29,699 nt of DNA from positions 1 to 29,699 of the IMG/VR virus record IMGVR_UViG_3300017655_000017. One strand, 5' to 3'. The position numbers were made by a program, and so were the translations under genes. This stretch comes from a virus. Its lineage: Duplodnaviria > Caudoviricetes. Positions 16,495 to 16,878 of this stretch are shown here, in pieces. Every line of letters begins with the position of its first letter. Position 1 is the first letter of the stretch. The notes beneath the pieces were generated by a model, which did not search any database, had not been told where the DNA came from, and saw only the letters and a program-made list of their open reading frames with translations.

Positions 16495-16620
16495 ATGTTA
16501 GAGAAAATATCAAAAGAACGAAAGCTGGATGCCATTTATCTTGCTGGATTGTTAGCAGCCGCCTGCATTCCCTTGGTAACTACGTTTATAGCAATTTATG
16601 TGATTAGTCAGCTGAAATAA
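16495..16620 (+). CDS. 41-aa single-TM membrane peptide
   Basis: GGAGG SD at 16484-88; MLEKISKERKLDAIYLAGLLAAACIPLVTTFIAIYVISQLK. Confidence 0.7.
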   Translation: MLEKISKERKLDAIYLAGLLAAACIPLVTTFIAIYVISQLK

Positions 16621-16641
16621 AAAAGCCCCAGTTAAGGGGCT
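16619..16641 (-). terminator. Intrinsic terminator, U-tract on the minus strand
   Basis: AGCCCC-AGTTAA-GGGGCT preceded by an A6 run on the + strand. Confidence 0.7.
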
Positions 16642-16706
16642 AGTTCTCTCGCGTGTTACCAGCACCGAGAGAGCGTCAATTACCTAAATAGGAGATAATT
16701 GAATAT
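16619..16706 (-). ncRNA. Predicted antisense RNA (about 85-90 nt) of cassette 1
   Basis: Extended -10 TGCTAAAAT on the minus strand (16720-16712), two hairpins, then a minus-strand terminator; covers the SD of 16705-16878. Confidence 0.55.
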
Positions 16707-16878
16707 GCTTAATTTTAGCAGTCTTATGACTGCATTAAAAGAGATTATTATGAGCAAAGAGATAAATAAAGAACAGCAAAACAGGGTTATTGACTCTCTA
16801 TGTATGTTTTCAAAACTTATTGGATGGGGAATATTTATTTTCCTTAGCCTTTGGGGTATTTCCTTGGTTATTCATTAA
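16705..16878 (+). CDS. 57-aa membrane peptide, cassette 1 (type I toxin-like)
   Basis: AGGAG SD inside a hairpin; MLNFSSLMTALKEIIMSKEINKEQQNRVIDSLCMFSKLIGWGIFIFLSLWGISLVIH; paralogous to 21307-21495. Confidence 0.72.
   Translation: MLNFSSLMTALKEIIMSKEINKEQQNRVIDSLCMFSKLIGWGIFIFLSLWGISLVIH

Follow-up and report, generated by a model that had tools for sequence, protein, structure and literature searches.

Predicted antisense RNAs at the first of two starts in membrane-peptide cassettes of a prophage tail operon

Why would a temperate phage keep genes for tiny membrane peptides between the genes of its tail, and how might their output be controlled there? The question arises from the virus record IMGVR_UViG_3300017655_000017 (Duplodnaviria; Caudoviricetes), whose 29,699 nucleotides were analyzed in full and are called the window here. 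Two related cassettes lie between tail genes, at 16616-16878 and 21203-21495, each combining a predicted minus-strand RNA with a plus-strand open reading frame (ORF) for a hydrophobic peptide. The best reading of the sequence is that the cassettes encode a short cis-antisense RNA, ~89 nt long for cassette 1 and ~104 nt long for cassette 2. More tentatively, with confidence a little short of even, we propose that this RNA covers the first of two ribosome sites and so may switch the gene from a long to a short membrane peptide.

The predicted antisense RNA of cassette 1 (16616..16704, minus strand) consists of hairpin A, hairpin B, and a terminator, as evidenced by its fold (z score, -5.6), covariation, and a geometry like that of P22 sar; by analogy with sar, it presumably starts at -1 of the ATG. 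The intrinsic terminator (16616..16641, minus strand; stem, 16624-16641) has a U-run that overlaps the stop of the upstream ORF, and it is kept in the related phage L002. Hairpin B (16645..16672) has an invariant bulged core and a variable loop, with 100% of cells paired and both-sided changes in 4 of its 10 pairs. Hairpin A (16676..16702) forms a 10-pair stem on the minus strand across the first Shine-Dalgarno (SD) site (16690-16695). The peptide ORF, W1 (16705..16878, plus strand), starts with the ATG at 16705 and encodes a long form of 57 aa; an extended -10 element on the minus strand (TG plus 5 of 6 bases; 16712..16720), with a poor -35, occupies its codons 3 to 6. A second purine-rich ribosome site (16737-16744) precedes an in-frame ATG at 16750, from which a short form of 42 aa (16737..16878 with its site) would be made, and the 3' half of W1 is hydrophobic (best 19-residue Kyte-Doolittle mean, 2.26). 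The terminator, two hairpins, ATG, leftward extended -10, second ATG, and hydrophobic 3' half had all been listed by a first-pass annotation of this DNA, and all are where it put them.

That annotation also noted that the layout recurs near 21207-21495, and it does: 21266-21377 repeats cassette 1 with 77% identity over 112 nt (E value, 1e-17) and with compensatory stem changes, one of just two self-repeat pairs in the window at an E value of <0.01. Paralogous cassette 2 comprises a predicted antisense RNA (21203..21306, minus strand), evidenced by its fold and 89% identical to its counterpart in L002; an extended -10 of full consensus (21314..21322, minus strand); and the 62-aa membrane-peptide ORF W2 (21307..21495, plus strand), whose second start, at 21352, has a good SD. 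An RNA of 85 to 90 nt had been expected, which fits the ~89 nt of cassette 1 and falls short of the length predicted for cassette 2. The terminator of the second RNA (21207-21244), overlooked by a simple terminator scan owing to its long loop, shows a 10-pair stem when folded and U-runs on both strands. As a separate observation, 16 tail bases are identical (E value, 0.008) between this terminator (21234-21249) and the late terminator of the phage (4298-4313). Beyond the earlier listing, each cassette is adjoined by a second small membrane ORF. W0 (16495..16620, plus strand; 41 aa) lies between the putative tube gene and the cassette 1 terminator and is absent from L002; W2b (21517..21678, plus strand; 53 aa) overlaps the next virion gene, and in its C-terminal part it matches peptides R2 and R3a of L002.

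Is the element read from the minus strand at all? Fold z scores range from -4.5 to -5.6 in 6 of 7 segments; the short segment from the sense strand of cassette 2 has -3.0. Over the five copies, 95.8% of cells pair in a minus-strand structure of 24 pairs, 8 of which have both-sided changes, and the covariation score exceeds 500 of 500 shuffles and all six slid controls; the five copies are kindred and the structure was derived from these same copies, and the score is thus to be read as support rather than as a probability. Where hairpin A columns have one-sided changes, all three (3/3) give G-U on the minus strand and a C-A mismatch on the plus strand. Moreover, at +5 to +13 the minus strand of all 5 copies has TG and a -10 hexamer with 5 or 6 of its 6 bases matching. 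The hexamer is at +8..+13 in 4 of the 5, and these 4 pass a fixed-window test at which all of 100 other ORF starts fail; in the fifth it is at +5..+10 of a GTG start, one base outside the test window. The AT-rich background yields an extended -10 at 85 of 22,646 positions, and the -35 matches of the antisense promoters reach 3 to 5 of 6 at best. Covariation and the conserved minus-strand -10 thus support, as far as sequence can, the cis-antisense layout first proposed, with the RNA over the ribosome site and its promoter in the first codons.

The same hairpins could instead be a sense-strand leader that damps translation or acts in antitermination, with no antisense RNA made. The sense strand folds too (z scores, -4.8 and -3.0), although less well than the minus strand, and hairpin B has at its base one invariant pair that reads as U-G on the plus strand alone and suits that strand. 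We nevertheless consider a sense leader highly improbable. The U-runs are confined to the minus strand in cassette 1 and in L002 cassette 3, the wobble pairs favor the minus strand, as does the conserved -10, and the hairpins come after the terminator, not before it. Also, start 1 is not unusually closed: its predicted opening energies are 7.7 and 9.3 kcal/mol, whereas 20 other gene starts in the window have a median of 7.2. The suggestion that a hairpin hides the SD is weak for the sense strand, where the SD is not unusually buried; on the antisense strand, the hairpin forms a clean 10-pair stem.

If an antisense RNA is made, what might it do? Host sigma-70 polymerase would probably make it in the lysogen and from early infection. 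With slightly less support, the sense message would probably come from Q-dependent late read-through, and the RNA is about equally likely to block start 1 as sar blocks ant. That start 2 then stays in use, giving a switch of the sas type, is a tentative proposal that we rate just below even. It is rather doubtful, if conceivable, that the long form damages or alters the membrane while the short form is harmless or protective, for exclusion or competition among related phages.

We favor the switch because RNA bound over site 1 would leave site 2 free and because a gene for the short form alone exists. The second in-frame ATG, chosen by aligning the purine-rich site before it, lies 15, 15, 15, 16, and 17 codons downstream in the five copies and 11 codons downstream in a look-alike from a distant phage, L064. 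The geometry is that of sas, with two in-frame starts and a predicted antisense RNA over the first only: the RNA is predicted to end at the first ATG, ~30 nt before the second SD, so that the second start is outside the duplex, and binding to site 1 shifts the predicted opening energy of site 2 by ≤2.2 kcal/mol. Peptides W1, W2, R2, and R3b align from the second Met onward, where similarity resumes, and R3b (L002:8588-8731) is the short form by itself, with its own SD and Met and no leader cassette ahead. Structural coupling of the two starts was considered and rejected, since just one of the 6 cassettes has a start 2 that opens when a ribosome sits on start 1.

Plain silencing in the manner of type I toxin-antitoxin pairs, whereby the RNA stops all toxin output through a block of start 1 and decay of the message and start 2 is never used alone, is the foremost alternative, and in our judgment an unlikely one. 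It accords with paralogous small hydrophobic ORFs of 35 to 71 aa that carry a net charge of 0 to +4, with type II toxin-antitoxin pairs at the same junctions, with strong cognate duplexes (predicted at -101 to -122 kcal/mol; -101 and -117 for the window copies), and with the embedded-promoter layout shared by symR (PMC1891008). It leaves the conserved second start and the stand-alone short gene unexplained, and nothing matches a known type I toxin or antitoxin family. Moreover, no dedicated toxin promoter was found in the window by a scan of limited sensitivity, and addiction after prophage loss would then lack an obvious message.

Several points weigh against the switch itself. Few events underlie the covariation, which comes from 5 full copies in 2 phage lineages, and the invariant U-G pair of hairpin B favors the other strand. 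Of the second SDs, those of W2, R3, and L064 are good and those of W1, R1, and R2 weak. The leaders of W1 and W2 differ at 5, 4, and 4 sites over codon positions 1, 2, and 3, with no sign of selection at the protein level; the leader is amphipathic in W1, W2, and the closely related P0009, and not in R1, R2, R3, or L064. A duplex of 90 to 100 bp might also be degraded by RNase III, which would shut off both starts. Finally, unlike with sieB, no sense promoter was found for 5 of 6 cassettes, so the long form should be scarce in the lysogen; the scan is insensitive, and this point settles little. Only one of the 6 has a promoter-like site, the window copies having none, in a scan that also missed the annotated sieB promoter. 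That site (L002:13398-13430), found in the relative only, has a perfect -35, TG, and 4 of 6 bases of a -10 and stands 5' of cassette 2; from it would come a short sense RNA that stops at the two-way terminator.

The first-pass annotation had likewise seen no obvious sense promoter and proposed late read-through, which the upstream elements support. A Q-like antiterminator gene (3794-4213, plus strand) is followed by a sigma-70-type late promoter (4217-4245, plus strand; 10 of 12 bases) and then by the late terminator (4284-4298, plus strand). In lambdoid phages, a promoter and terminator just after Q are the usual set-up for Q-dependent late transcription. This region (3794..4298) is the likely source of the cassette sense transcript. 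A role in lysis timing, also suggested at first, is not needed, since the window has separate genes (27031-28152) that we take, from their motifs and with no library match, to be endolysin-like and holin-like; a holin role for the cassette peptides was rejected on the same grounds.

Which known system, then, do the cassettes most resemble? In P22 sar/ant (Rfam RF00262), as here, the antisense RNA ends at the target ATG, with a 5' hairpin over the SD and a 3' terminator, and a TG-extended -10 lies inside the first codons of the target (+7..+12 for sar, +8..+13 here). The P22 record has sar running 70 nt back from next to the ant ATG, with its promoter within ant codons. Like the cassettes, sar/ant (the immunity I "ant moron") is an insert in the late operon (PMC2629481, PMC12197685). 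The predicted cassette RNA has three hairpins and 89 to 104 nt, whereas sar has two hairpins and 70 nt; the target is a 57- to 71-aa membrane peptide without a family rather than an antirepressor; and the cassettes, unlike sar/ant, have no adjacent arc/mnt-type genes. The sar model RF00262 gave 0 matches at an E value of ≤10 in the window and 0 in G001 (P22 control, 97.8 bits), and our covariance model of the cassettes, R1, does not detect sar.

The second ATG makes P22 sas/sieB/esc, by analogy, a closer working model than hok/sok. There too one ORF has two in-frame starts, 24 codons apart versus 15 to 17 here. According to two reviews, an antisense RNA blocks synthesis of SieB while Esc, a SieB inhibitor, is still made (PMC10002423, PMC12197685); PMC12888859 words this control differently. 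SieB has 192 aa and its own lysogen promoter, whereas the cassette peptides have 57 to 71 aa and sit in a late operon; unlike sas/sieB/esc, the cassettes are predicted to have a dedicated, terminated RNA. Family scans revealed no sequence link between the two, and Rfam gave no match over the P22 sieB region said to hold sas.

A further parallel is symR (Rfam RF01809), a 77-nt cis-antisense RNA opposite the 5' end of symE with its promoter within the ORF (PMC1891008). Like the cassette RNA, it has an SD hairpin followed by a bulged hairpin; unlike that RNA, it covers the start codon, and SymE is an AbrB-fold protein of 113 aa expressed from its own promoter, which LexA controls. None of 9 cassette peptides matched the SymE family or any other in Pfam, and the symR model gave 0 matches in the window at an E value of ≤10 (E. 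coli control, 95.3 bits). Hok/Sok and Ldr/Rdl share with the cassettes a small hydrophobic ORF and a cis-antisense RNA 5' of it (PMC8594479), and the type I families Hok/Sok, Ldr/Rdl, Ibs/Sib, and AapA/IsoA likewise occur in several copies per genome. In size and layout, the cassettes fall within the type I pattern of a 20- to 60-aa hydrophobic ORF with a complementary RNA, two long forms being larger (62 to 71 aa). They differ from the membrane type I families in that no separate toxin message of 150 to 400 nt is evident, in having two in-frame starts, and in exchanging peptides behind one RNA scaffold; no homology to described type I toxins or antitoxins was found in Rfam, Pfam, NCBIfam, or PHROGs. 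In layout the element thus resembles sar and symR, and in outcome perhaps sas, while its sequence places it in neither Rfam family.

The RNA and the two main peptides are uncatalogued, yet the control geometry matches three textbook cases. To our knowledge, an antisense RNA that chooses between two products of one gene is represented by P22 sieB/esc only. A literature search conducted largely without subscription papers returned no second case, and the switch, if true, would be a further natural one.

Are the components new? A match to a known Rfam or toxin-antitoxin family, a possibility raised at the outset, was looked for in Rfam, Pfam, and NCBIfam, and neither the RNA nor the two main peptides had one. 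At an E value of ≤5, Rfam gave 9 and 8 weak matches for the two cassettes, mostly terminators and far below cut-off; by its sequence, the RNA is a new family, in no Rfam family. The literature search, which also went largely without supplementary lists of candidate toxins (e.g., PMC2887945), found no description of the element. Ten small ORFs in or beside the cassettes have a hydrophobic 19-residue stretch (means, 1.75 to 2.84), and the long forms have 57 to 71 aa. Pfam matched 0 of 9 cassette peptides at an E value of ≤0.05 and NCBIfam 0 of 6 tested. Among 10 peptides searched against PHROGs, W2b matched phrog_34597 (E value, 4.8e-6) and the L064 peptide phrog_6632 (E value, 0.002), both of unknown function; the main peptides W1 and W2 are new in that their sequences belong to no protein family searched. 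A peptide profile run against 1.84 billion representatives returned 6 proteins: 4 from the cassettes' own lineages, the new relative P0009, and one chance match, a repeat protein that was rejected. The best ESM Atlas score was 0.84, a lead only.

If several such RNAs occur in one genome, can they tell their targets apart? The first 32 bases of the two predicted window RNAs are common except for four loop bases. Predicted cross duplexes inside one genome reach -7 to -25 kcal/mol (window pair, -24 to -25), and those between orthologous cassettes of the two lineages reach -49 to -54 (cassette 1) and -84 to -88 (cassette 2). From these modeled energies, cross-talk between the window RNAs is possible unless loop contact is rate-limiting. 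The idea that loops set specificity is borne out weakly: all 4 variable bases of the hairpin A loop are different between the two window copies, whereas in L002 the loops are just 1 or 2 bases apart and it is the stems that differ, and the window pair is still predicted to form a cross duplex of -24 to -25 kcal/mol. A YUNR U-turn motif, sought by eye in loop B, is present in 3 of 5 antisense loops and is not conserved.

These cross-lineage duplexes raise another explanation, namely, that the RNA confers immunity in trans against the late message of incoming kin phages with a matching cassette, either disarming the peptide or cutting the tail operon. Two further observations agree with it. A 1,072-nt strain piece from sequencing run X5 has 17 differences from the window, all within the upstream virion gene, and none over the ~600 nt of cassette 2, and modules have been shuffled among copies. 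Pairing in cis is always stronger, however, and the host is an uncultured one; we regard immunity in trans as very unlikely.

How did the cassettes come to lie where they do? A close tail module was found in three viral loci, L001, L002, and L003 (tube identity, 89%); L001 and L002 give identical alignments, and L003 stops short of the cassette. L002 carries both cassettes and a third at 8276-8731, behind which come another two small membrane ORFs and a HicA/HicB pair (L002:8276-9504 in all); the window lacks hairpins at that site and has just an A-run (17476-17490). The cassettes are under selection: between the window and L002, the noncoding parts are 81% (cassette 1) and 89% (cassette 2) identical, the four flanking virion genes 66 to 77%, and the peptide ORFs 58 and 53%. 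Cassette 1 of the window is a mosaic, in which the terminator and hairpin B match the L002 orthologue at 88%, while the part from hairpin A to codon 23 is 77% identical to cassette 2 versus 61% to the L002 orthologue. Also, a 151-nt strain piece from run X8 (one low-depth contig) has the window's upstream ORF and hairpins with a different ORF start right behind hairpin A, and it carries the full minus-strand extended -10 despite the swapped ORF. Together with the L002 copies, this swap upholds the early view of a paralogous family with changing peptides. Joints that skip a cassette were not seen among 4 sequencing runs.

Cassette 1 lies between a putative tail tube gene (16046..16480, plus strand; phrog_12993, function unknown), presumably so from its place after the sheath gene (14496-16034, plus strand), and a gene that, from its position, presumably encodes a tail assembly chaperone (16907..17284, plus strand; phrog_20383, function unknown). 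These two genes are directly adjacent in most relatives, and the gap exceeds 200 nt in 4 of 99 loci having both (the window, L002, L064, and L129). The cassettes behave as phage morons, with patchy presence between conserved virion genes and AT-richer ORFs (GC, 0.31 to 0.32 versus 0.42 for the window). In L129, the tube junction holds a reversed BrnT/BrnA type II pair (L129:7461-7980), and this junction looks like a hot spot for toxin-antitoxin inserts. The type II pairs at the same gene junctions, BrnT/BrnA in L129 and HicA/HicB in L002, count in favor of the switch; from these pairs and the peptide type, the cassette peptides may be toxic.

The ORFs flanking cassette 2 match the two halves of one 320-aa protein. 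In the window this protein spans 20564-21967; it is one gene in 62 of 70 loci and two genes in 8, all of them in AT-rich phages (GC, 0.37 to 0.44). An intron-like or gene-splitting insertion was rejected; because the split occurs without any insert in 6 loci, cassette 2 entered a junction that already existed.

The position of the cassettes suggests yet another function, in which the RNA or its convergent promoter mainly tunes the late message through an RNase III cut, through transcriptional interference, or, at cassette 2, through a Q-dependent stop. This would set the ratios of tail proteins or keep read-through silent in the lysogen, and the peptides would be passengers. Cassette 1 indeed comes after the genes for the sheath and the putative tube, conservation is seen in the RNA part but not in the peptides, and cassette 2 has a plus-strand U-run with a 16-nt tail equal to that of the late terminator at 4298-4313. 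Tail assembly is nevertheless independent of the cassette, as 95 of 99 loci lack an insert of >200 nt at the tube junction, and all 6 cassettes retain an SD, an open frame, and a hydrophobic segment. We find tuning of the late message quite improbable.

The switch may be extended, speculatively and with less confidence than plain silencing earns, to a portable socket: one antisense-RNA scaffold, copied to several tail-operon junctions, would gate changing tiny membrane peptides, each gene being its own toxin-antidote pair (the long form poisons, the short form protects), with alleles that arise by recombination and by loop and stem change and silence kin, not rivals. If true, this would give temperate phages a small weapon system, keyed by RNA, for competing with one another. 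As a unit of 260 bases that carries interchangeable peptides, the cassette also offers a compact, testable case for how membrane-active peptides are kept in the late operon of such phages.

How widespread is the element? The cassette family is narrow, being confined to two phage lineages and one simpler look-alike, as the covariance-model search recommended earlier also indicates. The look-alike, at the tube junction of L064 (L064:7440-7664), is a 78-nt two-hairpin minus-strand element (z score, -5.4) with a -10 lacking TG, followed by a hydrophobic ORF of 48 aa that also has a second start, with a good SD. It is the best nontraining match of model R1 (17.9 bits; E values, 0.32 and 0.008 in two search sets), a score from which shared ancestry with the cassettes is not established. 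Nearby, at L064:7698-7766, an Rfam int-alpA RNA scores above cut-off (46 bits) directly 5' of the putative tail assembly chaperone gene.

Model R1 returned the 5 training copies and 10 weak matches in 75 sources and 3 matches, all with E values of >0.5, in 24 genome loci. The 2 weak matches in 16 genomes chosen by tmRNA likeness were ordinary terminators and were rejected, as was L104, a chance match, as a further copy. An architecture scan of 101 sources (1.11 Mb; 1,547 short hydrophobic ORF starts) gave 8 matches (all 5 copies, two in L064, and one that lies within a head gene), against 0 of 1,160 in a reversed-sequence control. Because the rule was written from the known copies, this result indicates rarity and is not an independent discovery. 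Pattern scans returned the two known lineages only, plus one chance match in a GC-rich contig (L017). Finally, blastn against GenBank phages hit 125 records, none with >80% cover; the best 20 of the 125 were short pieces, 19 of them at the terminator. Model R1 and the architecture rule nonetheless offer a means to find more cassettes.

The surroundings are those of a 29.7-kb myovirus-type prophage contig with replication, Q-like antiterminator, terminase, portal, capsid, sheath, baseplate, and fiber genes, and its tail module is ~40% identical to that of Ralstonia phage Raharianne and kin. The putative chaperone gene has an A-run at its end, and a conserved second ORF comes next (17275-17478), as in L002; this is likely the usual tail-chaperone frameshift. 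Beyond it, a 189-aa accessory gene (17526-18095) is AT-rich (GC, 0.29) with a hydrophobic N terminus, and its L002 counterpart at the same place has 195 aa. A PLD-like domain protein (3181-3693; PF13091; E value, 7e-29) is encoded immediately 5' of the Q-like gene. Between the late promoter and terminase, a 682-aa ORF without a family match (4797-6845) contains an internal repeat (6294-6385 versus 6438-6529; 78%).

Rfam at its cut-offs reported only a transfer-messenger RNA (tmRNA) and one tRNA over the whole window. A tRNA-like match at 1-86, cut by the contig start and not called by ARAGORN, is oriented toward the replication genes. The far end of the window holds the host tmRNA gene and the end of smpB, which mark the attachment side. 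The tmRNA (29078-29476) has the tag peptide ANDNSKMGRFDAVAA, and its best matches, at 70 to 71% among 301 genomes of one class, point to a poorly sampled host lineage.
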